This document shows, one piece after another, positions 168 through 50,900 of a stretch of DNA of 64,000 bases (position 1 is the stretch's first letter; each line of letters begins with the position of its first letter). Under the pieces are notes generated by a model. It ran no database searches. It saw nothing but the letters and a program-made list of their open reading frames with translations, and had not been told where the DNA came from. The position numbers and the translations under genes are program-made. Origin of the DNA: a virus; IMG/VR virus record IMGVR_UViG_3300027896_005002, positions 315,488 through 379,487 of that record; one strand, 5' to 3'.

Positions 168-182
168 TATAACTCCTTTAAA

Positions 183-274
183 CGGAAGATGAGAGAATTG
201 AACTCCCAGTCCAATTTTTATTTGGACAACTGTTTAGCAAACAGCCCCGGCGAACCATTATCCGGCTATCTTCC
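183..274 (-). tRNA. tRNA-Ser (anticodon GCU), class II with a long variable arm
   Basis: Hand-folded. Acceptor GGAAGAT/ATCTTCC is a perfect 7 bp stem. Anticodon stem GCTGT/ACAGT closes loop TTGCTAA. Variable arm is GTCCAA-ATAAAAA-TTGGAC. T-arm is GGGAG-TTCAATT-CTCTC. Discriminator is G, as expected for Ser. CCA is not encoded. Confidence 0.65.
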
Positions 275-348
275 AATTATAGAAGTTATAAAGACATAAT
301 CAATTGTATTGCAATTAATTTAACCTCTCTAAGTTTACATTTATATAA

Positions 349-623
349 TGGCTGGCTCGGAGGGTTTCGAACCCCCAACCTACTGGTTACACTTATCTAT
401 ATATTTCTATATAGCGTGGACTTTCTCTTCACCATTTTCTATTTCTAGAATTTAGGTGCACCGTGTAAAGTCTCTACACATAAGAACTTTTAGTTCTCTT
501 GCTCGGGATTGCCATAGATTTCTCTTTAGGTTTCCCCGACTTAGCGGCGAGTTCATCTAAATATTTCTATTTAGAGCTGCGTTTGACCACAGCCAGTCGC
601 TCCGCCTATTGAGCTACGAGCCA
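349..623 (-). tRNA. tRNA interrupted in the anticodon loop by a ~199 nt intervening sequence; probably tRNA-Asn(GUU) if the intron is group I-like, otherwise tRNA-His(GUG)
   Basis: The 5' exon (623..589) reads TGGCTCG-TA-GCTC...GAGC-G-ACTGG-CTGT. The 3' exon (389..349) reads TAA-CCAGT-AGGT-TGGGG-TTCGAAA-CCCTC-CGAGCCA-G-CCA. Acceptor halves are 7/7 complementary and anticodon-stem halves (ACTGG/CCAGT) are 5/5 complementary. Splicing after U35 with the intron ending in G gives loop CTGTTAA and discriminator G, as in bacterial tRNA-Asn. Confidence 0.55.
390..588 (-). other. Intervening sequence (candidate group I-like intron) inside the tRNA anticodon loop
   Basis: 199 nt lie between two perfectly matching tRNA halves. 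The upstream exon ends in U and the intron ends in G, which is consistent with group I rules. It contains short hairpins such as GTGTAaagtctcTACAC. P/Q/R/S cores could not be verified by eye. Confidence 0.4.
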
Positions 624-665: not shown

Positions 666-741
666 TGGTGGGCGCACTCCGAGTCGAACGGAGATAAGAA
701 GATTTTCAGTCTTCCGCCTTGTCCGCGTTGGCAATACACCC
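666..741 (-). tRNA. tRNA-Phe (anticodon GAA)
   Basis: Hand-folded. Acceptor GGGTGTA/TGCGCCC includes 2 GU pairs. Anticodon arm is GAAGA-CTGAAAA-TCTTC. T-arm is CTCCG-TTCGACT-CGGAG. Discriminator is A and CCA is encoded. Confidence 0.75.
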
Positions 742-1518: not shown

Positions 1519-1596
1519 TCAGCGGGGGTGGCTTCGAACCACCGCACTCCTCCATGTTTTAGAGGTGCTCTGATAATCCAGCTGAGCTACCCGCCG
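1519..1596 (-). tRNA. tRNA with canonical acceptor and T arms but an atypical D/anticodon region; anticodon unresolved
   Basis: Acceptor CGGCGGG/CCCGCTG. T-arm GGTGG-TTCGAAG-CCACC. D-stem GCTC/GAGC has a 13-nt loop. Anticodon arm is CCTCT-AAAACAT-GGAGG and lacks U33. Discriminator is A. The fold is 78 nt. Confidence 0.45.
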
Positions 1597-2051: not shown

Positions 2052-2852
2052 TCAACGATCCTTTTTTAAAAATGACTTTAAAGACTCATTGATATTATTC
2101 TCACAATCAACCCAATTACAATATTTACAATGATCACCTCTATTTTTCTCAAATTTATTATTTTCAATTGCATCAAACATCTTTTCTACTTCATTTGATA
2201 CAATCATATAATCTTCATCTTTTACTACAATGTCTATAATCTTATTCTCTTTTTTAGATGGATGTACAAATCTTACTTTCTCTTCCACAAGACCATACCT
2301 TTTGTACAAGGCCCAACTATAAATTAATCCTTGCATTCTATATTTCTCTACATCATGTTTTCCTGTTTTCCAATCTAAAATATTGAGACATCCATGTGAC
2401 TCAATAACTAAATCCATGAACCCATGCATATTTATTTCAAATCTTTTATTATTATATGGTAATAAAAATTCTAATTCAATTCCTTTTTTGCCGTCATTAA
2501 AAAGATAAACTTCATGTAACCAATCATGTTCTTTGGCCATTGCTACCCAGTTTTTGATCATTGTAAATCCAGTAGCTTTACTATATTTTAATTCTAATTG
2601 TTCTGCTTGTTGTTGTTTTGTTTCAATATCAAAAAATTTGGGCCAATTCTCAAATAATGTTTTAGTATTGCTAAATCTACCGGTATTATAAAATTTTTGA
2701 AGTAATTTATGAAGAGCCTGACCAAAAACTAGATGTACACTTGGTAATCTAATAACTTGACGTTTGTCTATTTTGTCTAGTTTGAAGGCCCAAGGACAGG
2801 TAGAAAAATTATTGATTGTAGAAGCAGATAAGTTAAAATGAAGTTTTTTCAT
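2052..2852 (-). CDS. Cas4-like PD-(D/E)XK exonuclease with a 4-Cys cluster
   Basis: N-terminal Cys (STCPWAF). Motifs D-LVIE...LDWKTGK give the D/ExK arrangement. C-terminus has C-x2-C-x5-C (CKYCNWVDC). Confidence 0.6.
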   Translation of the reverse strand: MKKLHFNLSASTINNFSTCPWAFKLDKIDKRQVIRLPSVHLVFGQALHKLLQKFYNTGRFSNTKTLFENWPKFFDIETKQQQAEQLELKYSKATGFTMIKNWVAMAKEHDWLHEVYLFNDGKKGIELEFLLPYNNKRFEINMHGFMDLVIESHGCLNILDWKTGKHDVEKYRMQGLIYSWALYKRYGLVEEKVRFVHPSKKENKIIDIVVKDEDYMIVSNEVEKMFDAIENNKFEKNRGDHCKYCNWVDCENNINESLKSFLKKDR

Positions 2853-4153
2853 TTTTGTTTTGACTGTACATATTCAGTCAAATAACTTATTGCTTTTTCA
2901 TGTTTTGCAGCGGTCTCACTAGCTTTATAGTTAACTTCTTTTTTCAGATTTGCAATAATTGACTTTTTCTCTTCTTCAGACTTTTGTAATTTTGTAGTTC
3001 TGTCTTGAATAAAAGCATCAACATCTTCTTTAGATGCAGTAATATTTCTTATATCACAAATATGATCTAAAAATATTTTTGATTCAAGAGTCTTTTCTAC
3101 ACGACGTTTTGTTTGAGCATAAAAAGTACTTTTTGCGTCTTTAAATTTTTTCAAATATTCTTCTTCACTTGTTGACATACGATACAGAAATTGATTCCAT
3201 TCACCATCTAATTCTCGACCAATCATAACCTCGGGTAAAGGCTCAATTTCCGAACTACTAATACATGCAGCTATTATTCCAGATTCAAAATTATCCTGAT
3301 CAATTTTTTCATAATCTTTTATCAATTTATTTTTAATAGTAGCTTTGTACTCATCAATAGATTGTGAATTTGCAGTAGCAAGTTCTTCAATTGATTTTTT
3401 AATAGTAGCTTCTTTTTTATGAATTGTAGTTGTAAAATCCGCAAATTTGCCATTAAGATCTTTGTTATGATATTCTTGAGGAAATTGAACTTTAATTATA
3501 CCACTAACACCTATTTTCATTTGTAGTAATTGTTCTTCAAATCCAGGGATAAATTTTGTTTGACCTATGACGTATCTAAAATTTTTAGATGCACCGCCTT
3601 GGAATAATTTTCCATCAATTCGTCCTTCATAGTCCATTGTTATGACATCATCAGTTTTTAAATTATATGAATCATCGACTACTGTATATGTTGTATCTTT
3701 ACTTTGAATAGCGCTAACTTGTTGACTAACCATTTGATCAGTGATTTCAGTAACTTTCTTAGTAAAATTCACTTTGTCAATATCAAATGATAATACTTTT
3801 GGTTTCAAAAACACAGTTGCTTGAATTGCTAAAGGTACTTTATCATCAAATTGTCCAAGGACTTCAAAATCATATGCGTCAACAACAGGTAATTGTTTTT
3901 CTTCAATAGCTTTTTGATAAAGAATTGTAAAAATATTTTGATATAGTTTAAATCTGTCAAGACGTTTTTCTGCTTCAGCTCGAGGCGCATGACCTTTTCT
4001 AAAACCAGGAATTTCAATATTGGATTTTACTTTGTCGTATTCTTGATCCATTAACTCTTTTACTACAGTTGCATCTGCAATAAATTTTAATTTATGCGGC
4101 GTTGCTTGTTTTGTCAGAGTTACTTGCATTTTTTCCTCCACATAAGAAATCAA
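2849..4153 (-). CDS. tig: trigger factor (ribosome-associated chaperone/PPIase) homolog
   Basis: MQVTLTK... is followed by the GFRKGHAP ribosome-binding signature (TF: GFRxGxxP). The FKBP-like PPIase block DYEGRIDGKLFQGGASKNFRYVIGQTKFIPGFEEQ...EYHNKDLNGKFADFTTTIHKKE parallels E. coli TF IDFTGSVDGEEFEGG...MIPGFEDG...EYHAENLKGKAAKF. The true start is probably the internal Met at about 4129. Confidence 0.8.
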   Translation of the reverse strand: MISYVEEKMQVTLTKQATPHKLKFIADATVVKELMDQEYDKVKSNIEIPGFRKGHAPRAEAEKRLDRFKLYQNIFTILYQKAIEEKQLPVVDAYDFEVLGQFDDKVPLAIQATVFLKPKVLSFDIDKVNFTKKVTEITDQMVSQQVSAIQSKDTTYTVVDDSYNLKTDDVITMDYEGRIDGKLFQGGASKNFRYVIGQTKFIPGFEEQLLQMKIGVSGIIKVQFPQEYHNKDLNGKFADFTTTIHKKEATIKKSIEELATANSQSIDEYKATIKNKLIKDYEKIDQDNFESGIIAACISSSEIEPLPEVMIGRELDGEWNQFLYRMSTSEEEYLKKFKDAKSTFYAQTKRRVEKTLESKIFLDHICDIRNITASKEDVDAFIQDRTTKLQKSEEEKKSIIANLKKEVNYKASETAAKHEKAISYLTEYVQSKQK

Positions 4154-8811: not shown

Positions 8812-9318
8812 TTATTTTTGTAAAGTGAATTTAGGTAAGTCTTCAGTATTTGAGGTCTTAAATGGATCTGAAAAATTGACTCCAGATCCACCTTCAGGAT
8901 GTTTATCATGGGATAATCTATGTCGAATGACTTCAAAAATATCATGAGCTATTTTTACCATCTCAGTCACATTGTTTGAACATATTGAATAAGATTGATT
9001 CGGCAACAAATCAAATAAAATTTTTCTTACTTTATTCAAACTATCTTCAACTTCTTGATCATATCCTTTTAATTTCGACGCAGGCATTGCTATATCTATA
9101 GCATTACTGAATTGAGTTAAACCCAATCTCATAAAAGCTTCTAGTGCGGCAACCATAGCACTTGCCTGATTTTCAGTTAACTCTAAAACATATTTGCCTC
9201 TTGATTGTACAAATGGACATTCTTCAGCACCACGAATAAAAAACTCAGTTGGCACAGTGTAACCATATGGGCATTGATTTTTCATTTTATCATCCATCAA
9301 TACTAATTCCTTCTCCAT
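8812..9318 (-). CDS. hypothetical protein
   Basis: 168 aa, directly downstream of and overlapping the RtcB gene. No archease motifs were seen. Confidence 0.4.
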   Translation of the reverse strand: MEKELVLMDDKMKNQCPYGYTVPTEFFIRGAEECPFVQSRGKYVLELTENQASAMVAALEAFMRLGLTQFSNAIDIAMPASKLKGYDQEVEDSLNKVRKILFDLLPNQSYSICSNNVTEMVKIAHDIFEVIRHRLSHDKHPEGGSGVNFSDPFKTSNTEDLPKFTLQK

Positions 9319-10630
9319 CTTTCATATTATGAATTGGTTTAATTTTATCCAAAATAATAGCTGTTGGCGCTATTGCTTCTTCAATTATTCTTGCGTCCTT
9401 ATAAGCATTAGGAGCTTCATCCAAAGTGCTTCTACCAACGGATGTTGAAAATACAGCTGTCATCTGTTTTTTGAATTCATCTATATTAAGTTCTCTTTTA
9501 GCTTGTGATCGACTCATCACACGCCCAGCTCCATGCGGTGCCGAAAAATTCCATTCAGGATTTGATTGACCTTCACAAAGTAAAATACCATCACGCATAT
9601 TAAAAGGAATAATCATCTTCTCATTTTTATATGATCGAATAGCACCTTTACGTATAATAAAATCATTAAAATCAATGAAATTATGTATGGTCTCAATCAT
9701 TTCTAAAGGCGTTACCTTTAAAATATCAGTGATGATATTCATCATGTATAAACGATTAGTATGAGCATATAATTGACAAAAAATCATATCAAACAAATAT
9801 CCTGCCATGTCTTCATTTTCTAACCACATCAATTCTTCAGGACATTTAATTGTAGGTTGTTCACCTTTTTTTGCTTCCTGAATTTTATGATAAAGTTCAT
9901 CACCTTTATATTGTTGACGTAATTCAATTATTTTATTTTGTATATCTTCTCTTGTCGTTTTCTTCAATTTCTTAATAGCTTTGTTTTGCCAATATTCACA
10001 AACCTTCTTACCAAAATTTCTTGAACCAGAATGTATTGTTATCCAAACATCACCTTTTGTTGACACTCCGGTTTCAATAAAATGATTACCACCGCCTAAT
10101 GTTCCAACACTATCAATAACTCTTTTAAAATTAGCTTCAAGAATTTTACATTTTTGAGTAAGCCAGTCAATATCATATTTTTCCAATTCATACGTAATAC
10201 CCACACGACTATTAAAAGCAGCAAAAAATTTCTGTGCTAATACATTGGCATCATGCCATGGAAAATCATTTTTCATATGAATTACAGATCTTTCATGAAC
10301 ATTTTGCCCAAATGGTACTCGCTGACGAATCTTTCGATCAAATTCATCTAATGATATATCTAACTTTTTCCCAATATTACAAGTCAACATACCGCATGAT
10401 ACATCAACACCAACAACATTCGGCACAATTTTATCAGTTAATTCCATTGTAAATCCGATAACACTACCTTTACCTGCATGAGTATCAGGCATAATTGCTA
10501 CAGGATTTGTAAACACTGGATTATTGATAAATTGAGTGATTTGACCGACACAAGTTTCTTCAACATTGTCGATCATTATTTTTGCGTTTGTATATTTTCC
10601 ATTCATTTGTATCATATTTAATATAATCAT
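9290..10630 (-). CDS. rtcB: RtcB-family RNA 3'-phosphate/2',3'-cyclic phosphate ligase
   Basis: MPDTHAGKGSVIGF...GGNHFIE...GSRNFG...SAPHGAGR are the hallmark RtcB metal- and GTP-binding motifs. Confidence 0.85.
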   Translation of the reverse strand: MIILNMIQMNGKYTNAKIMIDNVEETCVGQITQFINNPVFTNPVAIMPDTHAGKGSVIGFTMELTDKIVPNVVGVDVSCGMLTCNIGKKLDISLDEFDRKIRQRVPFGQNVHERSVIHMKNDFPWHDANVLAQKFFAAFNSRVGITYELEKYDIDWLTQKCKILEANFKRVIDSVGTLGGGNHFIETGVSTKGDVWITIHSGSRNFGKKVCEYWQNKAIKKLKKTTREDIQNKIIELRQQYKGDELYHKIQEAKKGEQPTIKCPEELMWLENEDMAGYLFDMIFCQLYAHTNRLYMMNIITDILKVTPLEMIETIHNFIDFNDFIIRKGAIRSYKNEKMIIPFNMRDGILLCEGQSNPEWNFSAPHGAGRVMSRSQAKRELNIDEFKKQMTAVFSTSVGRSTLDEAPNAYKDARIIEEAIAPTAIILDKIKPIHNMKDGEGISIDG

Positions 10631-10671
10631 ATAATATGCATTGATATGAAGGAAAATTTAACTTATAGAAA

Positions 10672-10707
10672 ATAAAAATGGTCGGCTTGGAATCTTCCTA
10701 GCCGACC
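10672..10707 (-). terminator. rho-independent terminator (minus orientation)
   Basis: GGTCGGCT-12 nt-AGCCGACC is followed on the minus strand by ATTTTTAT. Confidence 0.4.
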
Positions 10708-11040
10708 ATCCTCCAATTTTAAATTTAACTCTTTTACCAATTAAAATCTAAATTCTTTACCAATTAATCAATTTTTCTAATAACATCATTTTTTCTAATA
10801 ATTGATTGGGATTTTCTCCACAATCCGCGCGCATCTAGTTTCATTGCTCAATGAGCTCCACTAGTTTGAAGGGTTTATTACAACGACCTTTTTGCGCAGA
10901 CATATAAGTCTAATAACATAACAAAATTAAATATAACATCATAAATATTAAATAAAAATAATTATTAGTTGTTACGACATTTTGTCCTCCAAGAAAAAGT
11001 TTCATATTATCTATTTTCTAAAAATAAAAAGGATATTTAT

Positions 11041-11679
11041 TTATTCATGTTGTTTTTCGTAGATTGTTCTCGTTAACCATTGTCTTGCTTCTATCTGATC
11101 TACAGTATTATCTTTTATTCTATCATAAAATTCACTATATGAAATCTTCGGAAAAACATCTAGATTAGAATTTAGAGACACATTAAAAACATTTTTATAA
11201 TTTGAAAAAATCTTGAACTTATAAGTCTTTGTATATGGTCGTTCATTCTCTCGACCTCTATGTGGAATGTCATGGAAATGACTAACATTATTTACAAACC
11301 CACAATCGTAACCTAACAAATATATTTCTTTAAAATCTAAAGCAATTCCTAACGACAAAGAAAATAATCCTACTAGAAAAGAACTATATAAACCTTGTTT
11401 TAAACCTTGACCACCACAAAATACATCAGAATCCTGTAATTTCATAATATCTGACGGTACATTGCATACACTTCTTGTAATTTTTATGCATTTTTTATCA
11501 TCAATAAATTGTTTTTGTTTATCATAAAATTCTCTATCAACCCAAATCAAAGCAGTTGGTTCATAAAAATGACAAACAAAATTTGTTCCAAAAGTAAATT
11601 GATTATCTAATTTTTTAAAGTCAAGTTCTTTTATACTTGGTCCGCCACCAATTATTACAAGTTTATTATTCATTATCAT
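11041..11679 (-). CDS. DUF115/MptE-like (Maf-like) putative glycosyltransferase
   Basis: The N-terminal KLVIIGGGPS motif resembles MptE-like/Maf nonulosonic-acid transferases. Confidence 0.3.
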   Translation of the reverse strand: MIMNNKLVIIGGGPSIKELDFKKLDNQFTFGTNFVCHFYEPTALIWVDREFYDKQKQFIDDKKCIKITRSVCNVPSDIMKLQDSDVFCGGQGLKQGLYSSFLVGLFSLSLGIALDFKEIYLLGYDCGFVNNVSHFHDIPHRGRENERPYTKTYKFKIFSNYKNVFNVSLNSNLDVFPKISYSEFYDRIKDNTVDQIEARQWLTRTIYEKQHE

Positions 11680-11726
11680 CTTCTATCCTTATAAGACAGG
11701 AAGGAGATAAAGGTCCAAGGGAAGAC

Positions 11727-12620
11727 TTACTTAATATCTTTTAGGAATTGTTGCATTTTTTCAATATCAGTTTCTTTACCTTCCCAGAATAAAGATAAAT
11801 ATGGAATATTTGGATCATGCCAAGTGCCTGCCAATTTTCTTCCAGGAGGTTCATTAAATGGTGGATAATAACAACAAACTGGTGTATAAAGCACATTAGC
11901 TAAAACCATTAATCCACTACAAGCACCAAAATACATTTTACTTTGTTGAAGAAGTGCTATTACACATAATAAATCAGGTGTTCGTCCAACTAAACTAATA
12001 GCTTGTATGTTGCGTTTTAAAAGTTCAACGTGTATATCATTCGTATAGTCATCATAATATCCGCCAACAAATACTGGAATCCAATTTGTCTTTTTCACTA
12101 TATCTTGTACTACATCAGCCGAAATAGATACATCATAATATCCCCAAGCTTTTTTAGTGCCGTAAGAAGAAAAATTTACAATAAAATAATTTGCTTTTGT
12201 AGATTTAGTCAATGCACCTTCAATTTTATAATGGAAATCTGTTGTCGGAATCTCATCTTTAAGCCAAAGTTCTAGTCTATTGCCATCTTCAAGAAAAGTA
12301 TTTGATTCAACAAATGTTGAAGCACCATTATTTAATTGACAATATTTAACCATTTTTGTTCGATTAGAATAAACAGAGGGATTACGTGATTTACAGATTA
12401 GTTCTATAGGTTTAACATGTTTATTCCACATTGTATGATATTGACTATTAGGACCAAAACTAAGAATTTTATCTTTAGATAATAAATTTAGATAGGCTTT
12501 CATTCTGTCAGGTTCACCACCGGCATATTCAATGTGATATTGATCACCAGTTGTTACAAATTTACTCCATGTCCAACTAAAATCACCAATACCACTTGGC
12601 ACCAAAATTTTGTGAATCAT
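11727..12620 (-). CDS. GT9-like (heptosyltransferase-like) glycosyltransferase, paralog of 18557..19405
   Basis: KILVPSGIGDFSWTW resembles the GT9 N-terminus (ILVIRLSxLGD). It shares clear similarity with the 282-aa paralog (GIGDF.W...GPDR...YLxLL). Confidence 0.35.
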   Translation of the reverse strand: MIHKILVPSGIGDFSWTWSKFVTTGDQYHIEYAGGEPDRMKAYLNLLSKDKILSFGPNSQYHTMWNKHVKPIELICKSRNPSVYSNRTKMVKYCQLNNGASTFVESNTFLEDGNRLELWLKDEIPTTDFHYKIEGALTKSTKANYFIVNFSSYGTKKAWGYYDVSISADVVQDIVKKTNWIPVFVGGYYDDYTNDIHVELLKRNIQAISLVGRTPDLLCVIALLQQSKMYFGACSGLMVLANVLYTPVCCYYPPFNEPPGRKLAGTWHDPNIPYLSLFWEGKETDIEKMQQFLKDIK

Positions 12621-12632
12621 ATAGACTCCTAT

Positions 12633-13547
12633 CTAATTTAAAATTTTTTTCGCTCTATTAATGTTTAAATGATGTCTTTTAAGCAAATCAAACGAATTTA
12701 GAGCAACATTTTCCATTTCTTTTAAATGATCTAAATAATAATAAACTATGTCTTTTAAATTATTTTTATCAAAAAATATCATACTTTCACCATGTCTAAA
12801 AAATTGGTCTTCTAATTCAATATCTGGTTTATCTGCTATTACACAATTATAATTTGATAATAATTCCCATAATCTCATACAATCCCAACCAGCACCTCTA
12901 ATATGAAAATTTAATTTAGATTTTCTTGATATTTCATAGTATCTATCTCTATCTAGAAATGTATCAGTAGCATATACAATTTTAAATTGTTTATGCATAT
13001 TAAATAATATCTTTCCTACATCCCACCGTAATTGATTAGACAAATTTCCAGAAAAAAATATATCAATTGGTCTTTTGTCAAAACTAATAAATTCTTCATT
13101 TAACATATACTTATTTGCAGACATAAACAATGGAACAGCTATTTTCTTTTCATTTTCTTTTATGATTTCTCTTTGAAATATTTTATGAATTCTTATAGGC
13201 GGCAAATTGGGTAATGCAGCTTCATCAGATCCATTTATATAAATAATTTCACCATTAAATTTATTGAAAAAACATTCAATATCATCCCATTTAAAAAACC
13301 AAAAATAACAATAATTTATGATGATATGTGAAATTTCATTATTGTTTATCATTGACAAAATGTTAGATTTAGAATACGCTGTAGGATATTGATTGACTTT
13401 AGTAAATATTGGTGTGTTTTTACCTCGCATATAATCAATATTTGGGTAATCTATGACATTATCTGCTCCTAACAATTCAATTAATCCTGACCACAAAGTT
13501 CCTGCGACATAATCAAAATTTTGACAAGTTATATAAAGAATTTTCAC
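12633..13547 (-). CDS. putative glycosyltransferase (CgeB/GT1-like)
   Basis: Assigned by its context in the glycan island. Similarity is weak. Confidence 0.25.
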   Translation of the reverse strand: MKILYITCQNFDYVAGTLWSGLIELLGADNVIDYPNIDYMRGKNTPIFTKVNQYPTAYSKSNILSMINNNEISHIIINYCYFWFFKWDDIECFFNKFNGEIIYINGSDEAALPNLPPIRIHKIFQREIIKENEKKIAVPLFMSANKYMLNEEFISFDKRPIDIFFSGNLSNQLRWDVGKILFNMHKQFKIVYATDTFLDRDRYYEISRKSKLNFHIRGAGWDCMRLWELLSNYNCVIADKPDIELEDQFFRHGESMIFFDKNNLKDIVYYYLDHLKEMENVALNSFDLLKRHHLNINRAKKILN

Positions 13548-13558
13548 ATTAGATTCTC

Positions 13559-14179
13559 TTATTCATAAAATTTTTCTCTTTGCCAAATAGCTTGACCTTC
13601 AGGATTATACGATAAATTAGGAAAATAAATGATATGACCATTATATTTTGTCATTATTTGTTTAATGGCTTCTTTTACTTGACCTATTCCTACATTATCA
13701 AAATATACAGTATCAACGCCTAATTTATAAATTATATCAAATTCTTCAACAACATAATCCTTTTCATGACAGCTATCTAAAAAAGCAAAATTTATTTTTA
13801 CATCAATTTCATTTAAGAAATTAATACTATTATTACAAATAATCTTTATGTTGGTTAATCCTGATTTTGCTATATTATCTGATGCTATTGCAACTTTTTC
13901 AAGGGAAGAATCGCAAGTTAAAATTGTGCCATTATAACCAGAATCTTTTAAAGCCTGACCCATAATAATTGACGAACATCCATAATTCGTTCCAGTTTCT
14001 ATTAAAAGATTTTCACCTTGTCTTAAACAACCTATAATACAATAATATAGTAATCCCCATGCCGGGTATCCAATTGATGAACCATTTTTCAAAAACGCTT
14101 CACCATTATCATGAACATCATCCAAAATTTTTAGATATTCATTAGGAAGCAAATTTCTGTTATAATTGAAATATCTCAT
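13559..14179 (-). CDS. class I SAM-dependent O-methyltransferase (TylF/MycF-like)
   Basis: LIETGTNYGCSSIIMGQAL is SAM motif I. It is a tandem paralog of the next gene. Confidence 0.5.
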   Translation of the reverse strand: MRYFNYNRNLLPNEYLKILDDVHDNGEAFLKNGSSIGYPAWGLLYYCIIGCLRQGENLLIETGTNYGCSSIIMGQALKDSGYNGTILTCDSSLEKVAIASDNIAKSGLTNIKIICNNSINFLNEIDVKINFAFLDSCHEKDYVVEEFDIIYKLGVDTVYFDNVGIGQVKEAIKQIMTKYNGHIIYFPNLSYNPEGQAIWQREKFYE

Positions 14180-14751
14180 TTTCTTACACTCAAAAGTAGA
14201 CCTTTATTTGATGGAAATATTACAGTATTCCAATCTTTTAAACTTTTCATGTACTCATATATATGCATCATTCTATGATCTGTATAAATATCATGAAATA
14301 ATGCTATTCCTTCATGATATATTTTATCTTTAACTATATCAAATTCAGCTACTGCAGTTTGAAAAGAATGTTGACTATCATGAAAAAAAACATCACAATA
14401 CTTAATATTTTTTATTAACTCCGGCAATAATTGTAAAGAATTTCCCAATTTAAATTCAAATTTTGCATTTAGACCAAACTTATCAATCCACGATTTTGTC
14501 CCAAAATCAGTTACATCCATTGTAAATATTTTACCATTTATATCAGCATCCCGTAAAGCCAATGCCATACATATTGATGAATATCCTTTATTTGTACCTG
14601 TTTCTATAATAATAAATGGTTCTGAATCTCTACCTACTCTATTGCTGCTTTTAGCTTTAGATATGACAAAATAATATAATAAATAGCCTAGTTCAAACTC
14701 TACAGACATTCCAGTCATATTTTTATTTAATTCTTCAATATCATTTTGCAT
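14176..14751 (-). CDS. class I SAM-dependent O-methyltransferase (TylF/MycF-like)
   Basis: IIETGTNKGYSSICMALAL is SAM motif I. It has an ATGA overlap with its neighbour. Confidence 0.5.
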   Translation of the reverse strand: MQNDIEELNKNMTGMSVEFELGYLLYYFVISKAKSSNRVGRDSEPFIIIETGTNKGYSSICMALALRDADINGKIFTMDVTDFGTKSWIDKFGLNAKFEFKLGNSLQLLPELIKNIKYCDVFFHDSQHSFQTAVAEFDIVKDKIYHEGIALFHDIYTDHRMMHIYEYMKSLKDWNTVIFPSNKGLLLSVRK

Positions 14752-15706
14752 TTAAAAATTTCTTTCTTTCATATTCTAGACATTCAATAACTGTTTCTTG
14801 AATAGAAAATTTGGGATACCAACCTAAATCTACTCTTATTTTTCTAGAATCTGCAACTTTATCAAAAGCTTCTTTATATGCAGATCCATGTAACTTAACA
14901 GGATCTGTAAATTGAATTTCAGATTTACTTCCCGATAATTTTAAAACCATTTTAGCTAAATCTAAAATAGTAATTTTGTTTAATTCATTACCAACATTAA
15001 AAACTTCTCTATTTACATCAGAATTTTGTATAAGCATAATTCCAGAAACAATATCTTTTACATTAGTAAAACTTCTAACCATTTTACCATCATAATAAAC
15101 TGTTAATGGTTCATTTCTTAAAGCAGCATTAATAAATCGAGGTAAAACAAAACCTCCTGGGATTGCACTTTGTCGTAATCCAATAATATTAAAAGGTCTT
15201 ATAATATTTATCTTCAAATCTAAAACTGAACTAGTATTCAATCCGCTAATTTCAGCCAATAATTTACCAACAGCATATTCTTGTCTTGCACTTGAATCAC
15301 TAATTACTATTTTATTATCAGTTTCTGCTAAATGTTCTTTTGGTGACGGTCCATATAATTCTGATGTTGAAACATATAATAGTTTTGCACCAGTTTCAAT
15401 ACATAATTTCATAACATTGCTTGTTTCTTCAATAATTCTACGACCAATTTGACCTGAATACTTTAAAACACCAACAGGACCAACAACACTTGCACAATGA
15501 TAAATATGATCATACTTTTTACTAGTAACAAATGTATTAATATCCTGTTTAATTATTGTAACTTGATTTTGATTAAAGAATGATTCAGTAATAACGTTTG
15601 ATTGACAATTATCAACAATATCAATATTATCAATTGTATTTGCTAATAAATTTTCAACAATATGAGAACCCAAAAAGCCTAATCCTCCGGTTACTAGATG
15701 ATTCAT
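14741..15706 (-). CDS. NAD-dependent sugar-nucleotide epimerase/dehydratase (extended SDR)
   Basis: VTGGLGFLGSHIV is the GxxGxxG motif. YAVGK is the YxxxK catalytic motif. The protein is 321 aa. Confidence 0.7.
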   Translation of the reverse strand: MNHLVTGGLGFLGSHIVENLLANTIDNIDIVDNCQSNVITESFFNQNQVTIIKQDINTFVTSKKYDHIYHCASVVGPVGVLKYSGQIGRRIIEETSNVMKLCIETGAKLLYVSTSELYGPSPKEHLAETDNKIVISDSSARQEYAVGKLLAEISGLNTSSVLDLKINIIRPFNIIGLRQSAIPGGFVLPRFINAALRNEPLTVYYDGKMVRSFTNVKDIVSGIMLIQNSDVNREVFNVGNELNKITILDLAKMVLKLSGSKSEIQFTDPVKLHGSAYKEAFDKVADSRKIRVDLGWYPKFSIQETVIECLEYERKKFLNAK

Positions 15707-17934
15707 GATATCTGCCTCCTAATATAAGGTTCAATAAATTTGTTCCATTCATTAACTTGTTCACCTAATTTATAATCTAAAAAAGCATGATTTATATGAT
15801 ATCCTAATCGTTCAGCATTCATACCAAAATGTTTTGTAAATGCAAATTGTGTATCTAATGCTGTTATTCTATTTGAATCAATTTTTTCAGTATAAAGTGT
15901 CCTTCCCATAAAACCTTGACTTCTCAAATGTATAAATGGTCCTGATGGCACAGATAAACTAATATACCCTAAATACGCAGCTTTTGATCCCATCCAACCT
16001 TCATAAAAATTAAATCCTGGTAAAAATCCTCCAGCTTTTTCCCATAAAGCTCGTTTTACAATTATAAGCCCACCTGGCCAAAAAGCTAATCCCAATTTTT
16101 TATTCAAAAGTTTTTCTCTATTACCTTTAATTAAATCCATATATGGAAACCCAGAATGAGTCAACATACTACTAAAATTAGCAGGTAAATTAATATGATC
16201 AGAAAAGATGATTTCTTTATTTTTTTCTTTCCACACATCAAGATAATCAAAAAATAATTTATATGTTAAATTACCATTGTTCCATGCTGCATCATCTTTA
16301 TAAAATTCTTCAATTATTTTATAATAAATATCTATATTTGAATCATTTATCTCATATCTAAAAATCCAATTTAATGGATCCAAAGTTGTTGGTATAAATC
16401 CAACTAATGCTAATAATGGCGCTTCAATATGAGGCAATCCCAACATTCCTAATTCAACAGGTCCTTGAGGTCCATTTAATTTAACATTATTTACATTATT
16501 TATTAAAATATAAGCAGCATCTAACCATTCAAAAGATGGTAAAACACCATCTTCTATTATTGCAACCCACTCATTGTCACAATTTTTAAAAATAAAATTT
16601 AAATTACTAGATAAATCAGGAGTATCATTAACAATAAATTTAACCCCAAAAGAATCACAAATTACTTTTTTCTTTTCAACTTCATCTTGTAACGGTGTTC
16701 CATCGTCAGATACTATGTATTCTACATCTTTAACATTAGTAAATTTTTGCAATTGTGGTAATAATGCTTTTAATCTATGACTTGCTATACTAACACTTGG
16801 AATTGCAATAGTAATTTTCATATTACACCTATTTATATTTAATTTTGATAAATTGATTTCTTTTTCTTGCTGTTCAGATTGTTGTTGTTCAATAGTTTTT
16901 ACTTGTAATGTATCTAATATTGACTTAAAAGTTAATCTCCATCGTTTATGTGTAATTTTTCTCCAATTAATAAGAGATTTTGAAATTGATTCAACAGATA
17001 AAGAATCGCACCAATCAAGAATATTAAAAGGCTGCCATGGACAATGACTTATATCAATTCTAGATAAAAAAGGTATTTCATCTGCCAAAAATTGTCTATA
17101 ATCTGTTCCAAGTAATAAACTTGGCATACCACTACCTGAACATGGCAAAGCACCATTATTGCGAATGCCTATATAAACATCTTTATCATTAAAAAAATTG
17201 CAAAATTTATTAAATGTATCAAACCAATTAATTGTTTTTGACAATTTTTCTGTAAAATATTCTTGCAAACCAAGATAATTTGATAATTTCCTCTCATATA
17301 TTAAATGAACATTATATTTACTTTTCTCAAATTCATCTATTATATATTTCATTTTTTCAAAATAATTCTTAAATGTATCATCAGTGCTACAACCAACTTC
17401 AGAAGGATTAGCTATTGATAATACAATATCTTTTTTACTAATTACTGATTTTGGCTCAAATGAATAAAAAGCAGGACAAGGTAAAATATGAGTAATATTA
17501 GATGCAAATCCATTCTTTACTGTTAACCACCAATAACAAAATCTATCTCTACAAACAACTAAATCAATAAGTTTTGAATCACGTAATTCAATTAATTCTT
17601 CTTTACCATAATAAAAATCGCTATTATATGGAACTGTTAATCCTACGCCAAGTAACATTAGCCTTTTTTTATATTTAATACAATACTTCCAAGATAATCT
17701 ATGTTCTATATCAAGCCATGATGGTATACCTGGTATAATAACATAATTTGCATTTTTTATTAAGGTTTCTAAAACTGTCGGCCCTTTGTCTTTTAATACT
17801 TTTGATGAAAATATAATATCAAAATTTTGTTGTAATTCGGGTAATAATTTAAAAATACCTTCAATAATAAAGTTACTACCTCCACCATCAAACTCCCAAG
17901 CAGTTGAAATCATTACAATATAATCTTTAGTCAT
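15703..17934 (-). CDS. large multidomain glycosyltransferase (central GT2-like GT-A domain)
   Basis: The central region KITIAIPSVS...YIVSDDGT is GT-A-like. The N- and C-terminal domains are not recognisable. Confidence 0.4.
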   Translation of the reverse strand: MTKDYIVMISTAWEFDGGGSNFIIEGIFKLLPELQQNFDIIFSSKVLKDKGPTVLETLIKNANYVIIPGIPSWLDIEHRLSWKYCIKYKKRLMLLGVGLTVPYNSDFYYGKEELIELRDSKLIDLVVCRDRFCYWWLTVKNGFASNITHILPCPAFYSFEPKSVISKKDIVLSIANPSEVGCSTDDTFKNYFEKMKYIIDEFEKSKYNVHLIYERKLSNYLGLQEYFTEKLSKTINWFDTFNKFCNFFNDKDVYIGIRNNGALPCSGSGMPSLLLGTDYRQFLADEIPFLSRIDISHCPWQPFNILDWCDSLSVESISKSLINWRKITHKRWRLTFKSILDTLQVKTIEQQQSEQQEKEINLSKLNINRCNMKITIAIPSVSIASHRLKALLPQLQKFTNVKDVEYIVSDDGTPLQDEVEKKKVICDSFGVKFIVNDTPDLSSNLNFIFKNCDNEWVAIIEDGVLPSFEWLDAAYILINNVNNVKLNGPQGPVELGMLGLPHIEAPLLALVGFIPTTLDPLNWIFRYEINDSNIDIYYKIIEEFYKDDAAWNNGNLTYKLFFDYLDVWKEKNKEIIFSDHINLPANFSSMLTHSGFPYMDLIKGNREKLLNKKLGLAFWPGGLIIVKRALWEKAGGFLPGFNFYEGWMGSKAAYLGYISLSVPSGPFIHLRSQGFMGRTLYTEKIDSNRITALDTQFAFTKHFGMNAERLGYHINHAFLDYKLGEQVNEWNKFIEPYIRRQIS

Positions 17935-17943
17935 AATTCCTTT

Positions 17944-18651
17944 TTATAGACGATTCTTTGCCGTCTGTTTCCTTTTAAACCGTCTTGATGCTTGATAATG
18001 TATTATTACTGGATTTTCAACTTTTATATAAGGTTCTTTTCCATCTGGTAAACTAAAAATATATGAATATTCTATAGGCAAATAATAACACTTTAAATTA
18101 GTAGAATTTACTAATCGTTCAAACCATATATGTTCTCCAGTATCTAAACTAAAACATTTCTTTCTCCATTCAGTTACAAATTTAAGAACATTATCATTAT
18201 TTCGAAAAAATATCGTTCCATTAAAAACTTCTTTTTTATTTGTATTAGTTCTATACCAAACATTATGGTCTAATACATGAAAAGCAATATCACATTCTTC
18301 AGGAATTGAATCAAATAATTTAGGATAACATTGCACTACAGCATCAGTATCAAGATAAACAATATTTTTAGGTTTGTTTTCAATTAATGCATTTAAAATA
18401 ATAGTTGGTTTGTGTGCAATATTAGCAAGCCAACTACCTTGATCTTCAACTTTTTTACACTCAAATTCAAGTTCCAATCTTTGTAATGATGGTAAAAGAA
18501 TGTCATTTGCCATTTGTTCATAACTACCAGGAGTATAAAAACTAATTACTTTGAATTTATTCATATATACTTTTAACAAATTTACATAAAGCTGTAATGT
18601 CTTGCTTATAATCAGACCATAAAAACCATTTATAAGGAACGTTTGGATCAC
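17944..18651 (-). CDS. GT-A fold nucleotide-sugar transferase (DxD); the true start is probably 18564
   Basis: Contains a YLDTDAV DxD motif. The internal Met MNKFKVISFYTPGSY gives an ATGAATAA overlap with the upstream stop. Confidence 0.4.
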   Translation of the reverse strand: MIQTFLINGFYGLIISKTLQLYVNLLKVYMNKFKVISFYTPGSYEQMANDILLPSLQRLELEFECKKVEDQGSWLANIAHKPTIILNALIENKPKNIVYLDTDAVVQCYPKLFDSIPEECDIAFHVLDHNVWYRTNTNKKEVFNGTIFFRNNDNVLKFVTEWRKKCFSLDTGEHIWFERLVNSTNLKCYYLPIEYSYIFSLPDGKEPYIKVENPVIIHYQASRRFKRKQTAKNRL

Positions 18652-19405
18652 TCCAACTGGTTGGTAATTGCGGTCTTGGCCACCATGACGCTGACGGAAT
18701 ACTTACCAAATTAGATAACATTGTCATACCGGAACTAACACAACCTAAAAAGAATTTACTACATTGAATTTGATGCAAGGCACTTAATACGTCTACTGTT
18801 TGTCCAATAAAATTGGTAACATTTGCATTTATTTTTACATATTCATCATAAACAGCTTTTGCAAAATCATCATAATCAGCACCAATAAAAATTGGTCTCC
18901 AATTTGTCTGTTTTTGTACAGCATATATTATTTCTAACCATCGAGGAACATCATATGTTTTCCAAATCTTTTGCATTTTCCATGATGACAGATGAACAAT
19001 AAATTGATCTTGTTGAACAGGATTTTTAAGCAATCCATTAAGTTCATAATGAAAATCTATTTTTAATTCTGGCATCCATACTTCAATACGACCACCATTT
19101 TCCAAATGTGTATTTGCTTCGACATAAGTTTGCTCATTTACTAACAAATCACTATAATTGAATGCTTTTCGCACAGCTGGAATTATTTTCATTTCCAAAT
19201 TTGAAAGAATAAATTGAGCTTTATAAGCTTTATTTTGCTTATAACCAACAATTTTATTTTTAGGTAGGAGAGTCAAATAAGGCCCTAATCTATCAGGGCC
19301 TGTATCTGGATATTCAACAAAATAACTGTCTTGTGTTGTAGATAATTTACACCATAACCAATGAAAATCACCAATTCCTGGAGGTACAATAATTTTGTAT
19401 AACAT
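18557..19405 (-). CDS. GT9-like glycosyltransferase, paralog of 11727..12620
   Basis: MLYKIIVPPGIGDFHWLWCKLSTT aligns with the 297-aa paralog. Confidence 0.35.
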   Translation of the reverse strand: MLYKIIVPPGIGDFHWLWCKLSTTQDSYFVEYPDTGPDRLGPYLTLLPKNKIVGYKQNKAYKAQFILSNLEMKIIPAVRKAFNYSDLLVNEQTYVEANTHLENGGRIEVWMPELKIDFHYELNGLLKNPVQQDQFIVHLSSWKMQKIWKTYDVPRWLEIIYAVQKQTNWRPIFIGADYDDFAKAVYDEYVKINANVTNFIGQTVDVLSALHQIQCSKFFLGCVSSGMTMLSNLVSIPSASWWPRPQLPTSWSDPNVPYKWFLWSDYKQDITALCKFVKSIYE

Positions 19406-21701: not shown

Positions 21702-23168
21702 ATGAAACATTTAGCAAAAATACAATCTGAATTTATTAAATCTGCATTAACCAAGGCAGATATAAATTTGTCTGTAGTGGCTACTTCTCAAAATCAACTA
21801 ATGTTTTTTACTAAAGAACAAAGCAAGCATTTCAATGATTTCATTGGTGAAAAAAATGAATTAAACGTTAGACATAATGCTAACAATTCAATAATATATG
21901 TTGGCTGTGGTAATGAAAATCAAATCACTCAACATGTTATTCGTAGTGCTACATCATTCGGCATTCAAAAAGCACAACATTTAAACTGGCAAAAAATATC
22001 TGTTATTATTCCACCGTGGTTTAATAATACATATAAATATGCGTGTATAGAAGGAACATTACTTGGGTCATATATTTTTGATGAATATAGATCAATAAAA
22101 AAGCCAAAAATTTTAATAGAAATTGTTGATAAAGATTTTTCCACTGAACAATTGGAAGAAATTAAAATAATTTGTAATTGTACAAATTATGCTAGAGATC
22201 TTACAAACAGAAATGCAAGTGATAAATATCCTGAGAAATATGCCGAAGAAATTAGTAATCTTTTTTCAAAATACAATGTAACAATTAATATTTTAACAGA
22301 AAAAGAAATTGTAGAAAAAGGACTAGGTCTTTTAAATGCTGTTAGTAGTGGTTCACCAAAACCTCCTCGATTAATTATTCTCCAATATAAAGGTAATCCT
22401 ACATCAAAAGAAAATATTGCTATTATAGGCAAGGGCATCATATTTGACACTGGTGGACTAGATCTCAAAGAAGAAAATATGAAATATATGCGAAGAGATA
22501 TGGCTGGCAGTGCAGTAGTTGCTGCATTAATGAAAGCTATTTGCGAATTAAAAATGCAAATAAATATTACTGGAGTGATGCCATTATCTTATAATTCAGT
22601 CGACGCAAAATCATATCTTCCTGGTGATATTTATAAATCATATGATGGAAAAACAGTTCAAATTGATAATACTGACGCTGAAGGTCGATTAGTTCTTGCA
22701 GATGCTATTGCTTATTGTAAAAAGAATTATAATCCAACAATGATAATTGATGTTGCAACATTAACAAAAGCCGTTTCAACTGCATTAGGTAAAATCGCTG
22801 CTGGTCTATTTAGTAATGATGATGATTTAGCTAAAAATTTAATAGAAGCCGGTTTAAGAACCAATGAAAAATTATGGCGTTTACCATTATATAAAGAATA
22901 TGAAGAATCTATTCGTAGTGATCTTGCAGATTTAAAAAATTCTGATGAATATGAACAAGCAAAATCTGCTATGGGTGCTGCTTTCCTTAAACAATTCGTT
23001 GGACAAACTCCATGGGCACATCTTGATATTGCAGGTGTAGCTTACATTGAAAGATTAGGCGATGCACCAGAACATTTATCTCATGGTGAAGATCCTCATT
23101 ATGCTACAGGTTTTGGCGTTAGATTATTATGGCAATATCTTAAAAATAAAATAAGGATTACTAAATGA
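21702..23168 (+). CDS. pepA: M17 leucyl aminopeptidase carrying the N-terminal MKHLAKIQSEFIK module
   Basis: NTDAEGRLVLADAIAY is the M17 signature. VMPLSYNSV and DVATLT are the surrounding conserved blocks. Confidence 0.85.
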   Translation: MKHLAKIQSEFIKSALTKADINLSVVATSQNQLMFFTKEQSKHFNDFIGEKNELNVRHNANNSIIYVGCGNENQITQHVIRSATSFGIQKAQHLNWQKISVIIPPWFNNTYKYACIEGTLLGSYIFDEYRSIKKPKILIEIVDKDFSTEQLEEIKIICNCTNYARDLTNRNASDKYPEKYAEEISNLFSKYNVTINILTEKEIVEKGLGLLNAVSSGSPKPPRLIILQYKGNPTSKENIAIIGKGIIFDTGGLDLKEENMKYMRRDMAGSAVVAALMKAICELKMQINITGVMPLSYNSVDAKSYLPGDIYKSYDGKTVQIDNTDAEGRLVLADAIAYCKKNYNPTMIIDVATLTKAVSTALGKIAAGLFSNDDDLAKNLIEAGLRTNEKLWRLPLYKEYEESIRSDLADLKNSDEYEQAKSAMGAAFLKQFVGQTPWAHLDIAGVAYIERLGDAPEHLSHGEDPHYATGFGVRLLWQYLKNKIRITK

Positions 23169-47993: not shown

Positions 47994-50900
47994 TTAGATA
48001 ATATTGATGATTAATGATTTAAGATTCAAATAATCTAAATCTGATACAATGATGTCATTCGCACCAGATTCTCCATGTACATTATATGCGACAGTCACAT
48101 TAAAATTTGTCACGCTTGAACTAATCTGACTGACAATTGTATGATTCCCTGTACCTTGATTTATAAAAGGTATTGCAATTCCGGACTGAGCATTAGCTAG
48201 TGAACTTGCAATTCTAATATAAATATTGTTAAGAAATATCACATAATAATCTGTTAATGGTAGTAAAGGATCAGGTAATGATCCTGTTGAAATAAATTGA
48301 ACCTTTGTTCCTGTTTCCCATACTTGACTTACAAGAATAGTGTTATTTACTATATTTATATCAGTTGCGGCAACAACTTCCTGTTGATAATTAACAGATA
48401 AATAGATAGATCCATCACTACTAATATATGCTTGATTTGCAAAAGTTTTGACATCATCTGGTGTCGCAACTAATGTAAGATCAACATTATCTTTTGTCAC
48501 TCTCCAAAATTTTGAAATATCACTGCTACTACCCAATGTCTTATATCTTAATATACCAGCTAATGTTTTATAAACAATAGCATTTCCAACTTGATAAATA
48601 AACCAATTAATACTGTTTGGTATTACCTCGTTTGCAATATGAACACCATCAGATATTTTCATTGTTGTCATAGGCAAACTAACATAATCAACATCTGCAC
48701 TATCATCAATTACAGCAACGACATCACTTTGACTAATTCTATCACCCATTTTCTTTTGATCAAATATTGTAAACAATTTAGTTGAAAGTTGATCTTTAAC
48801 TACTGGAGTATTTGCACCAGTAGCTAATTTTACATTAAATTCTAAGTCAACATCAATTTGATTTGCAGCTTTAACCAAAACATCTGCAGTAACGTGTCTT
48901 GAAACATTTATTTTATCTTGTATAGTTTTAATTAATGAATTCACAGTATAAGTTGCAGTCATTTGTTCACCATATTTATAACTTACGATAACTGTTTGAC
49001 CCGTTGATATTGAAGATGTATTTGATCTTGCAATTTGAACATAATTAAATGGTGTTTCTGCAGACAATATCAAATAATCATTATTTAATTCATATGTTAT
49101 TGTTTGTGTTAAATCAGTAACTACAATTGTATGCTCATCAATTCCTTTTTTATTTAACGACTTGTAATCAAGTCCGGCAAGCACAACATTCTCACTAAAA
49201 TCATATAATTGTCCTTCAGGCATTCCTGTACTAGGATTATATAGTAGTGTCACACTTCGTTGTGATCTTACTGAATTTCCTTCAATTAAAATATCGTCAA
49301 CCTTATTAAATGTGTATCCTGAACCTTCCTGTAAAACTGTCCCATTAGCTGTAACAATAGAAACAATAGTATCAACTGGTTGATTTGAAAAAATAATCGG
49401 CGGCGATTTACGATAACGATATGTCATTCTAACAATATCTGTTGACAATAATCCAATAGTACTATTAATAGCATTATGAGTATTAATATTAATAGTTTTT
49501 CCATCAGCTTCTATTAATATCGCTTCAACAACATTGTCATGACTTAATAATGCTGTTATTTCTCCACCAGAAGCACTTGCAATAACAACTTCATTTAATA
49601 CTGTTGTAACATATTTATAATCTGCAGTCAACATGTCACCAACAGCAATAAATGTATTATAAAATCTTTGTGTCGTCAATGCACTATTTATTGTTACAAT
49701 GCCCGTACTATAATCTATTGTATAATCTAAATCTTTTACTAATGTCACTTTTGTATCAGGAGTAATTACTAATGATCCAAAACCAGCATCAACAAAACCA
49801 ATTGCCACACCTGCTAATGCATTTTCTATTGTTGTGGCTAATTTCAACTGTCTTGTTCCAGTTTCTGTTAATCTACTACAAATCACATAATAGCCTATAT
49901 CAGCTACTAATGGAGCAGGTAATATTCCTGAAGGACTTGAAACTAAGACTTTATCACCAGTTCTGAAAATATGACGTTCACCTGTTGTTATTGTTATAAC
50001 TGATACTGGAAAACCAACTGTTGATATTGTCCACGGATTAAATGATCCTGATCCAGCAGTAGACGTCACATTCACGACTAAAATTCCTGTCATCACATCA
50101 TATGATGTTACAGCTCCTTGCATTTTATGTGTATCATCATATTTAAGTTCAATGACTTCATCAACACTAAACATCAAATTCAAATCATTTGTAATTACAG
50201 TTTGTAATCCTGTACTTATTGAAACTATCGTATTTGATGTTGTTAAATTTCCAACTACAAAATTATTTGTTCTCGATCCATAAATTATCTCAGAAAATAA
50301 TGCTACTGGATTATTAATAGTTTGAATAGTTTGGGGATCAAGAACTATTACTGTTTCATTTGTAATTGCAACTTTATAATCATAATCTGCAACTATTTGA
50401 TCACCAAACGATAATGGTGTATCAAATGTCATTTCTCCCGTTATTAAATCCATTGAATATTGATCTTTAGGTAAAATAACAGCATTTCTTTTAATTGTAA
50501 AATTGCCTGTCAAATCATATAATTTACTTTTTGTTATATTCTCAATCATTTGTATTAAATAAACAGGATCATCAATTGAAACATCTGGATTTATAACTTG
50601 AATTCTCCACTGTACTGGTAAACTAGCAACAACAACCACTACTGTTTCATCAATCACACCATTATATACAAAACCAAAAGTATCAGTATAACTTATTTCT
50701 GAAAATCCTTTAAAATAAATATCAACTTTTCCATAAGCATGCTGCTTTCTTACAATATCATAATCTCTTTGCATTAATGGATGACCTGCATCAACTACTA
50801 AAACATCTTGAACGTATTGAACACCAATAGTTGTTCTTAAATATCCGTCAAGAGTTCCAATATCTAAACCAGTAAAAGCCAACATTGCTCTAAAAGCTAA

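Follow-up and report, generated by a model that had tools for sequence, protein, structure and literature searches.

A phage-encoded RtcB-family RNA ligase and its candidate role in mending nuclease-cut RNA

RNA ligases of the RtcB family join RNA ends that carry a 2',3'-cyclic phosphate or a 3'-phosphate to ends that carry a 5'-hydroxyl. In this study, we examine an rtcB gene on a 64,000-nucleotide (nt) stretch of the viral record IMGVR_UViG_3300027896_005002 (IMG/VR, positions 315,488 to 379,487), referred to here, over its whole length of 64 kb, as the window. The gene encodes a full-length member of the family that has kept its active site and the RtcB fold, and it lies among phage genes. 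Its product may serve to re-seal RNA cut by host nucleases during infection, and this reading is weighed below against four others.

To our knowledge, the Pnkp and Rnl1 enzymes of phage T4, which act on tRNA-Lys cleaved by PrrC, are the only established case of viral counter-defence by RNA repair. The rtcB product would likewise supply a phage ligation pathway for breaks with 2',3'-cyclic phosphate and 5'-hydroxyl ends, and it is this functional analogy that lies behind the counter-defence hypothesis. The T4 enzymes are nevertheless unrelated in family and chemistry: RtcB uses GTP and ligates the 3'-phosphate directly, as one enzyme and with no healing step. Neither Pnkp nor Rnl1 is encoded in the window, whereas one relative, L001, has both an RtcB and an Rnl1-type ligase.

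Known phage members of the family (PHROG 1075) include gp17 of Bacillus phage CAM003, proteins of other Bastille-like herelleviruses and of cluster K1 and other mycobacteriophages, and a homologue in the 735-kb uncultured phage LR756501. They align with the present protein over its full length at 41-45.5% identity. As here, the gene stands singly, without RtcA or RtcR, and the proposed role is the same, namely protection from host tRNA cleavage (PMC3203893; PMC7824862). The differences are that the protein studied here belongs to a subfamily of about 440 residues with extra helical residues, and that the relatives closest to it come from metagenomes, at 55-70% identity. Its gene lies between a sugar-modification cluster and a replication module, whereas the CAM003 gene is found in an early region, among small open reading frames (ORFs) of unknown function. 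E. coli RtcB, encoded in the RtcR-controlled rtcBA operon, is 30% identical to the phage protein, which retains all of the catalytic residues but has a helical insertion; RtcA and RtcR are directly adjacent in E. coli, and neither adjoins the phage gene. Neighbourhoods that combine RtcB with RlaP and a CCA-adding enzyme are a further point of comparison, as exactly this layout occurs in the closest phage relatives but the partners are absent from the 64-kb window.

The combined action of phage RtcB and phage tRNAs against host tRNA cleavage was proposed for cluster K1 mycobacteriophages in 2011 (Pope 2011; PMC3203893), and the same protective idea was generalised to jumbo phages in 2021 (Iyer 2021; PMC7824862). 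The idea that phage tRNAs are nuclease-resistant followed in 2023 (PMC10264068), and the T4 precedent, together with the proposed role of phage RNA ligases, has been set out in the same literature (PMC7824862; PMC3203893; PMC10264068). A literature search of incomplete coverage returned no experimental test of any phage RtcB. Plausible as it is, the counter-defence hypothesis is not new, and RtcB genes occur commonly in phages; what is particular to the gene described here is modest, and consists of the subfamily of about 440 residues with its extra helical residues and of isolation from the usual partner genes. Proof that a phage RtcB reverses the damage done by anticodon nucleases or HEPN effectors would give viral counter-defence by one-step RNA repair its first experimental case, and would help to explain the build-up of RNA-repair genes in large phages, a question general to hundreds of phage RtcBs. 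The present gene, being without the partner genes that its relatives possess, gives no special leverage on that question.

A full-length RtcB with an intact active site in a phage genome

The gene was placed by its Pfam and PHROG matches, by its catalytic residues and by a structure model:

9290 to 10630, minus strand: rtcB, 3'-phosphate/5'-hydroxyl RNA ligase (PF01139, phrog_1075)

The reading frame is open for 446 codons without interruption. Homologues begin at the position of Met6, and the true start may therefore be at 10615, which would give a protein of 441 residues. Residues 30-437 match the RtcB profile PF01139 over positions 1-425 of 426 (E = 1e-62; 213.2 bits against a cutoff of 27), and the product also matches phrog_1075, annotated as "tRNA splicing ligase" (E = 1.7e-122). 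As sequence matches, both lie far beyond chance. Sequence comparison also matched it to RtcB proteins of known structure from Thermus, Pyrococcus and human. No NCBIfam subfamily model reached its cutoff for the product, and E. coli RtcB also fell below cutoff.

Catalytic residues were mapped by alignment to E. coli RtcB, in which we take D75, C78, N167, H168, H185, R189, H281, H337, R341 and R345 to be essential, and their conservation was scored in an alignment of 34 sequences. Every one has its counterpart in the phage protein. The metal-binding cluster is formed by D76, C79, H183, H200 and H316 (E. coli D75, C78, H168, H185 and H281, respectively), and N182 and R204 are equivalent to N167 and R189. 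The histidine that is guanylylated, H366 (E. coli H337), lies within the motif SAPHGAGR, and R370 and R374 correspond to R341 and R345. These last three residues are located in SAPHGAGRVMSR and are invariant in the 34 homologues. Two further residues, D49 and H51, fall within the MPDTH motif. All of the catalytic residues listed here are invariant in the alignment except D49, which is kept in at least 90% of the sequences.

An AlphaFold2 (AF2) model built from the same 34-sequence alignment reached a mean predicted local distance difference test score (pLDDT) of 89.3 and a predicted template modelling score (pTM) of 0.88. When it was compared with the Protein Data Bank (PDB), 16 fold matches were obtained with E below 0.001, and all were RtcB chains (E = 5e-19 to 6e-13; template modelling score 0.56-0.67). 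Relative to E. coli RtcB, members of the subfamily of about 440 residues carry about 30 extra residues at a helical segment, 222-265, within the region 204-304 that is helical in the model. Some subfamily members are much longer: P0094, P0098 and P0106 have 740-765 residues, the first with an intein and HNH domains and the other two with inserts that carry no annotation.

The window itself is of phage origin. It encodes a baseplate wedge protein, a giant tail-fibre-like protein, an FtsK/terminase-like ATPase, DnaB, a DnaC-like loader and helicases, and its G+C content is about 29% throughout, with rtcB as low as the remaining phage genes. Its first 12 kb are 100% identical to L034, from a 39-kb JGI metagenome contig, and L029, from a metagenome contig of 415,903 bp in the ENA, matches the 410 nt that precede rtcB with 100% identity. 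Given the phage genes and this identity, the best reading of the window is as a portion of a huge phage, about 416 kb in size. Among GenBank phages, no DNA nearly identical to the window was found, and the FtsK/terminase-like protein gave only remote matches to cultured phages.

Family membership, the intact active site, the RtcB fold and the phage context are thus established, and the initial annotation, which had described a phage-encoded RtcB with all catalytic motifs intact, is borne out by the full-length profile matches, the fold and the alignments with E. coli RtcB and the 34 homologues. Catalytic activity is inferred, the product being very probably an active RtcB ligase, and so are the substrates and the part in counter-defence that are proposed below.

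Related loci and the company of repair genes

Homologues of the product number in the thousands. The best are metagenomic, at 99% and 70% identity, followed by others at 55-64%, and the gene is kept in the related metagenomic contigs, with 99% identity in one and 70% in L030. An RtcB homologue was found in 642 of 50,697 GenBank phage records, and phages retain the gene recurrently. The closest phage relatives, at 49-64% identity, commonly carry other RNA-repair genes nearby. A CCA-adding enzyme is encoded within about 10 kb of RtcB in L001, L002, L005/6, L007, L009, L010 and L025, of which L005-L010 and L025 are IMG/VR contigs, and in all of these but L002 the RlaP nucleotidyltransferase is also near. 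L001, a 60-kb ENA contig, adds Thg1, an Rnl1-type ligase, an HD_4 protein and NADAR. (The CCA-adding enzyme of L002 is fused to a GIY-YIG domain.) CCA-adding enzyme, RlaP and RtcB recur together in related phage contigs as a module for tRNA/RNA repair. RlaP, the RNA-ligase-associated Pol-beta nucleotidyltransferase, was named for its linkage to RNA ligases, its linkage to RtcB is known in bacteria, and the products of the partner genes either repair tRNA ends or are associated with RNA repair (PMC12776372). A role of RtcB in RNA or tRNA repair is therefore supported by association.

No such partner was found beside the gene studied here. The ORFs scanned across the window encode no RtcA, RtcR, PrfH, splicing endonuclease, archease, Pnkp, Rnl1, Thg1, RlaP or CCA-adding enzyme, and a homology search for repair partners gave as its sole match the GIY-YIG domain of a homing endonuclease. 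The rtcBA-rtcR operon layout is absent, as the neighbours of rtcB are a function-unknown ORF (ORF168) and the gene for a sialyltransferase/MptE-like protein. A PrfH-RtcB2 pair is likewise lacking, with TIGR03073, the model for release-factor-coupled RtcB, scoring 71.9 bits against a cutoff of 271.8 and no release-factor domain in the scanned ORFs. The archaeal/eukaryal tRNA-splicing pathway is not represented either; the only tRNA intron is of group I, and the scanned ORFs hold no endonuclease or archease domain. Nor does the 64-kb window contain an RNA-repair module of the kind seen in the relatives, in which a CCA-adding enzyme, RlaP, Thg1 or Rnl1 is found near rtcB. Among the best 120 homologues of the L001 CCA-adding enzyme, none came from the 415,903-bp contig, and the partners may lie elsewhere in the 416-kb genome.

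Close cellular homologues, at 57-59% identity, occur in a metagenome-assembled genome (MAG) of Chitinivibrionales, beside efflux-pump and ribonucleotide-reductase genes, and in a 601-kb contig that also encodes a protein with a Fibrobacter-type domain (PF09603). Both are stand-alone genes in ordinary chromosomal contexts.

Proposed role and competing explanations

By analogy with established RtcB enzymology, His366 would be guanylylated in the presence of Mn2+ and GTP. A 2',3'-cyclic phosphate end would be opened to a 3'-phosphate, GMP would be moved onto that phosphate to give RNA-3'-ppG, and attack of the 5'-hydroxyl on the activated phosphate would leave a normal 3'-5' phosphodiester, with no separate kinase or phosphatase healing step required. 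During infection, tRNAs, and possibly rRNA and mRNA, that had been cut by metal-independent host RNases would in this way be re-sealed and translation kept running. The candidate cutters would be the anticodon nucleases PrrC and RloC, HEPN effectors such as Cas13 and Csm6, and colicin-like or toxin RNases.

The expected range has limits. HNH tRNases leave 3'-hydroxyl and 5'-phosphate ends, and no help would be expected against them or against Toprim tRNases. For the latter, 5'-phosphate and 3'-hydroxyl ends were measured for P2-OLD and are described as a conserved trait of Toprim nucleases, to which AriB of PARIS belongs (PMC12445682). Because RtcB cannot join such ends, the list of target nucleases in the initial annotation, which names PARIS-type tRNA cleavage, was too broad.

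We put the probability that the rtcB product acts in counter-defence, by re-sealing nuclease-cut RNA, at roughly 55%. Support for it is indirect and comes from the intact active site, from the recurrent retention of the gene by phages and from the repair genes that accompany it in relatives; in addition, the phage's own tRNA genes share the strand of rtcB. Several observations weigh on the other side. Within the 64-kb window RtcB stands alone, without CCA-adding enzyme, RlaP, Thg1, Rnl1, Pnkp, RtcA or archease. The gene is immediately flanked not by RNA genes but by the sugar-modification cluster and the replication module. Among 26 related loci, only two have tRNA genes within 10 kb of RtcB. 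Finally, the stand-alone state of the cellular homologues means that rtcB could be a recent acquisition from a host, with a generic role. A conserved linkage between tRNA genes and RtcB was also sought as a feature in its own right and was not found: it is seen in those two of 26 loci, and in Bacillus phage CAM003 no tRNA gene lies within 8 kb of RtcB.

The most probable alternative is that RtcB serves the general upkeep of translation and mends any cyclic-phosphate breaks in rRNA, tRNA or mRNA during the long infection of a large-genome phage; such breaks could come from stress-induced toxins of the MazF type or from the phage's own RNases. We regard this as possible but unlikely. Bacterial RtcB mends rRNA as well as tRNA (PMC9304027; PMC7790460), and the cellular members of the subfamily are stand-alone genes of a housekeeping type. 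An RtcB for upkeep would also join other translation and proteostasis genes of this phage, namely those for tRNAs, a trigger factor and an M17 aminopeptidase. The explanation overlaps heavily with counter-defence, however, and the two are hard to tell apart by sequence. It also has to contend with the lack of a PrfH partner, with the low TIGR03073 score, and with the association of RtcB with CCA-adding enzyme, Thg1 and Rnl1 in relatives, which points to tRNA specifically.

It is distinctly improbable that rtcB is a passenger, recently captured from a bacterial host and without a selected role in the phage. The identity of 57-59% to the chromosomal RtcBs of the Chitinivibrionales MAG and of the contig with PF09603 could be taken that way, as could the gene neighbourhood around rtcB, which is not conserved in relatives. 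A passenger would not, however, be expected to be of full length with every catalytic residue intact, to recur in hundreds of unrelated phages or to be embedded in RNA-repair modules in related ones, and the G+C content of the gene, as low as that of the rest of the phage, argues against a fresh import.

E. coli and Myxococcus RtcB reportedly seal or GMP-cap DNA 3'-phosphate ends, according to work of the Shuman laboratory, and the genes for the DnaC-like loader, DnaB, a NucS-like nuclease and a Cas4-like PD-(D/E)XK nuclease lie 2-7 kb from rtcB on the same strand. A function in DNA-end transactions alongside these replication and nuclease genes is nonetheless very improbable, since relatives show no conserved linkage of RtcB to them and the linkage that does exist is to RNA-repair genes. 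The fourth alternative, which concerns the splicing of a phage tRNA, is taken up with the tRNA genes below.

The tRNA island, the flanking sequence and other phage genes

Four tRNA genes are found in the window and two more just beyond its start. Those in the window are as follows:

182 to 275, minus strand: tRNA-Ser(GCU), called by ARAGORN
349 to 623, minus strand: intron-split tRNA, most likely tRNA-Asn(GUU), with a 199-nt group I intron at 390-588, from Rfam and ARAGORN
666 to 741, minus strand: tRNA-Phe(GAA), called by ARAGORN and scored at 46.9 bits by Rfam
1519 to 1596, minus strand: tRNA nearest to rtcB, with anticodon loop AAAACAU, from Rfam (RF00005, 36.8 bits)

The initial annotation had placed rtcB beside a tRNA island. 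The island is real, but "beside" was an overstatement: the nearest tRNA gene, at 1519-1596, is 7.7 kb from rtcB, on the same strand, with 13 called genes between them. Beyond the window start, where the sequence was read from L029 and L034, both of which extend past it, the island continues (L034 positions 11884-14826) with an ORF of 405 residues that has DUF559 and zinc-finger domains and is possibly a homing-type endonuclease, two tRNA-Cys(GCA) genes whose lengths, 91 and 68 nt, are odd, and a gene for an NAD-dependent DNA ligase.

With default settings, ARAGORN called only the tRNA-Ser and tRNA-Phe genes. When introns were allowed (-i), it read 349-623 as tRNA-Thr(UGU) with a 199-nt intron at 33/34. 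Rfam identified a group I intron (RF00028) at 397-598, with 55.2 bits against a gathering score of 50 and E = 6.5e-13. By the P1 U.G pair in the Rfam alignment, the 5' splice site falls after CUGU; ARAGORN calls the sequence spliced accordingly Asn(GTT), and the intron also has a terminal G. The U1-A72 pair with G73 also fits a bacterial tRNA-Asn. On these sequence features, the gene is most likely a tRNA-Asn(GUU) with its intron at the unusual position 35/36. Group I introns at tRNA position 35/36 were described in 2026 as enriched in Patescibacteria and self-splicing in vitro, with the same confusion of Thr and Asn and with routine mis-annotation (PMC13011429).

Archaea and animals use RtcB as their splicing ligase, and one phage tRNA gene does contain an intron, but a splicing ligase of that style for the island's tRNA has next to no probability, given that the intron matches the group I model (55.2 against 50 bits) with its P1 U.G pair and terminal G, that introns of the 35/36 type self-splice in vitro (PMC13011429), and that no scanned ORF encodes a splicing endonuclease or an archease. 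As the intron is a self-splicing group I ribozyme, RtcB is not needed to splice this tRNA; the role of splicing ligase for it is rejected, and the fallback in the initial annotation, that the intron-containing tRNA might be the only substrate of RtcB, is unlikely.

The tRNA at 1519-1596 has a perfect cloverleaf, but its anticodon loop, AAAACAU, is non-canonical, with A and not U at position 33. It was recovered by Rfam only in a search of a short stretch (RF00005, gathering score 29; E = 9.6e-07) and was missed by default ARAGORN and by two wider Rfam scans; with relaxed thresholds, ARAGORN called it as a tRNA with an 8-nt loop. Its role could be nuclease evasion or that of a decoy, or the gene could be a defective copy.

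Re-sealing of cut RNA by RtcB might be combined with these tRNAs in two layers of protection against tRNA-targeting immunity, the second being the private tRNA set of the phage, perhaps poorly recognised by host nucleases. Among its members are the AAAACAU-loop tRNA and the intron-split tRNA-Asn(GUU), the latter an isoacceptor targeted by nucleases of the colicin E5 type. We consider this two-layer arrangement doubtful. If it were true, the subfamily of about 440 residues with the helical insertion would provide the first RtcB shown to be a viral counter-defence enzyme.

On its two sides, rtcB is flanked by the following:

8812 to 9318, minus strand: ORF168, a downstream ORF of unknown function, co-oriented with rtcB and packed tightly against its stop codon
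10669 to 10709, minus strand: terminator-like hairpin, read from the sequence and from the z score of its fold

The longest form of ORF168 has 168 residues and the form given by gene callers 161, and a start at Met12 (9285) best fits the closest homologue, so that the product has 157-168 residues overall. It has no Pfam, PHROG or NCBIfam match, only three homologues were found among 5.8 billion proteins, and a tblastn comparison with 28 loci gave no match. Next to the RtcB of L030, which is 70% identical to the present one, the ORF is missing, and the homologue of the ORF in L031 (56%) does not adjoin RtcB. Its AF2 model is unreliable (pLDDT 37.7) and too poor for a fold search. ORF168 was considered as a conserved partner of RtcB and rejected, with no family match, three homologues and no synteny with RtcB elsewhere. 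The initial annotation had seen no obvious archease in it, and the lack of any family match agrees, within the limit set by the poor model.

The 410 nt in front of rtcB (10631-11040) form a non-coding stretch with a core richer in G+C at about 10800-10910. It is closed by the hairpin, which consists of a 10-bp stem, AUGGUCGGCU/AGCCGACCAU, followed by UUUUAUUUU as a U-tract, and stops 38 nt short of the first rtcB ATG. The fold of 10665-10925 has z = -3.46, mostly owed to this hairpin. Rfam found nothing credible in the gap, the weak FopS-like match (E = 0.27) being driven by the terminator hairpin, and neither gap nor hairpin is conserved in the other loci compared. A Y-RNA-like or other structured RNA in the gap is unsupported, as the signal is that of the hairpin and is without conservation.

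The sugar-modification cluster, 11041-19405 on the minus strand, is directly upstream of rtcB. It encodes the sialyltransferase/MptE-like protein, glycosyltransferases, two class-24 methyltransferases, an NAD-dependent epimerase/dehydratase and a nucleotide-diphospho-sugar transferase, and its target may be DNA, the virion or the host surface. Together with a trigger factor and an M17 aminopeptidase, this cluster makes up the unusual cargo of the phage, and the group I intron at 35/36 in what is most likely tRNA-Asn, the tRNA with the aberrant loop and the phage trigger factor are the more unusual features of the window. The trigger factor, a ribosome-associated chaperone, is encoded in full length at 2849-4153 on the minus strand (TIGR00115, 242.9 bits against a cutoff of 180) with all three of its Pfam domains, and it has matches in only 29 GenBank phage records, mainly unannotated metagenomic fragments. 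The M17 leucyl aminopeptidase (PF00883, E = 1e-110) is encoded at 21702-23168 on the plus strand, opposite to most genes. The GIY-YIG homing endonuclease, at 52018-52809 on the minus strand (phrog_314, E = 3e-42), adjoins a baseplate-wedge-like gene at 47994-52040, in a run of large genes.

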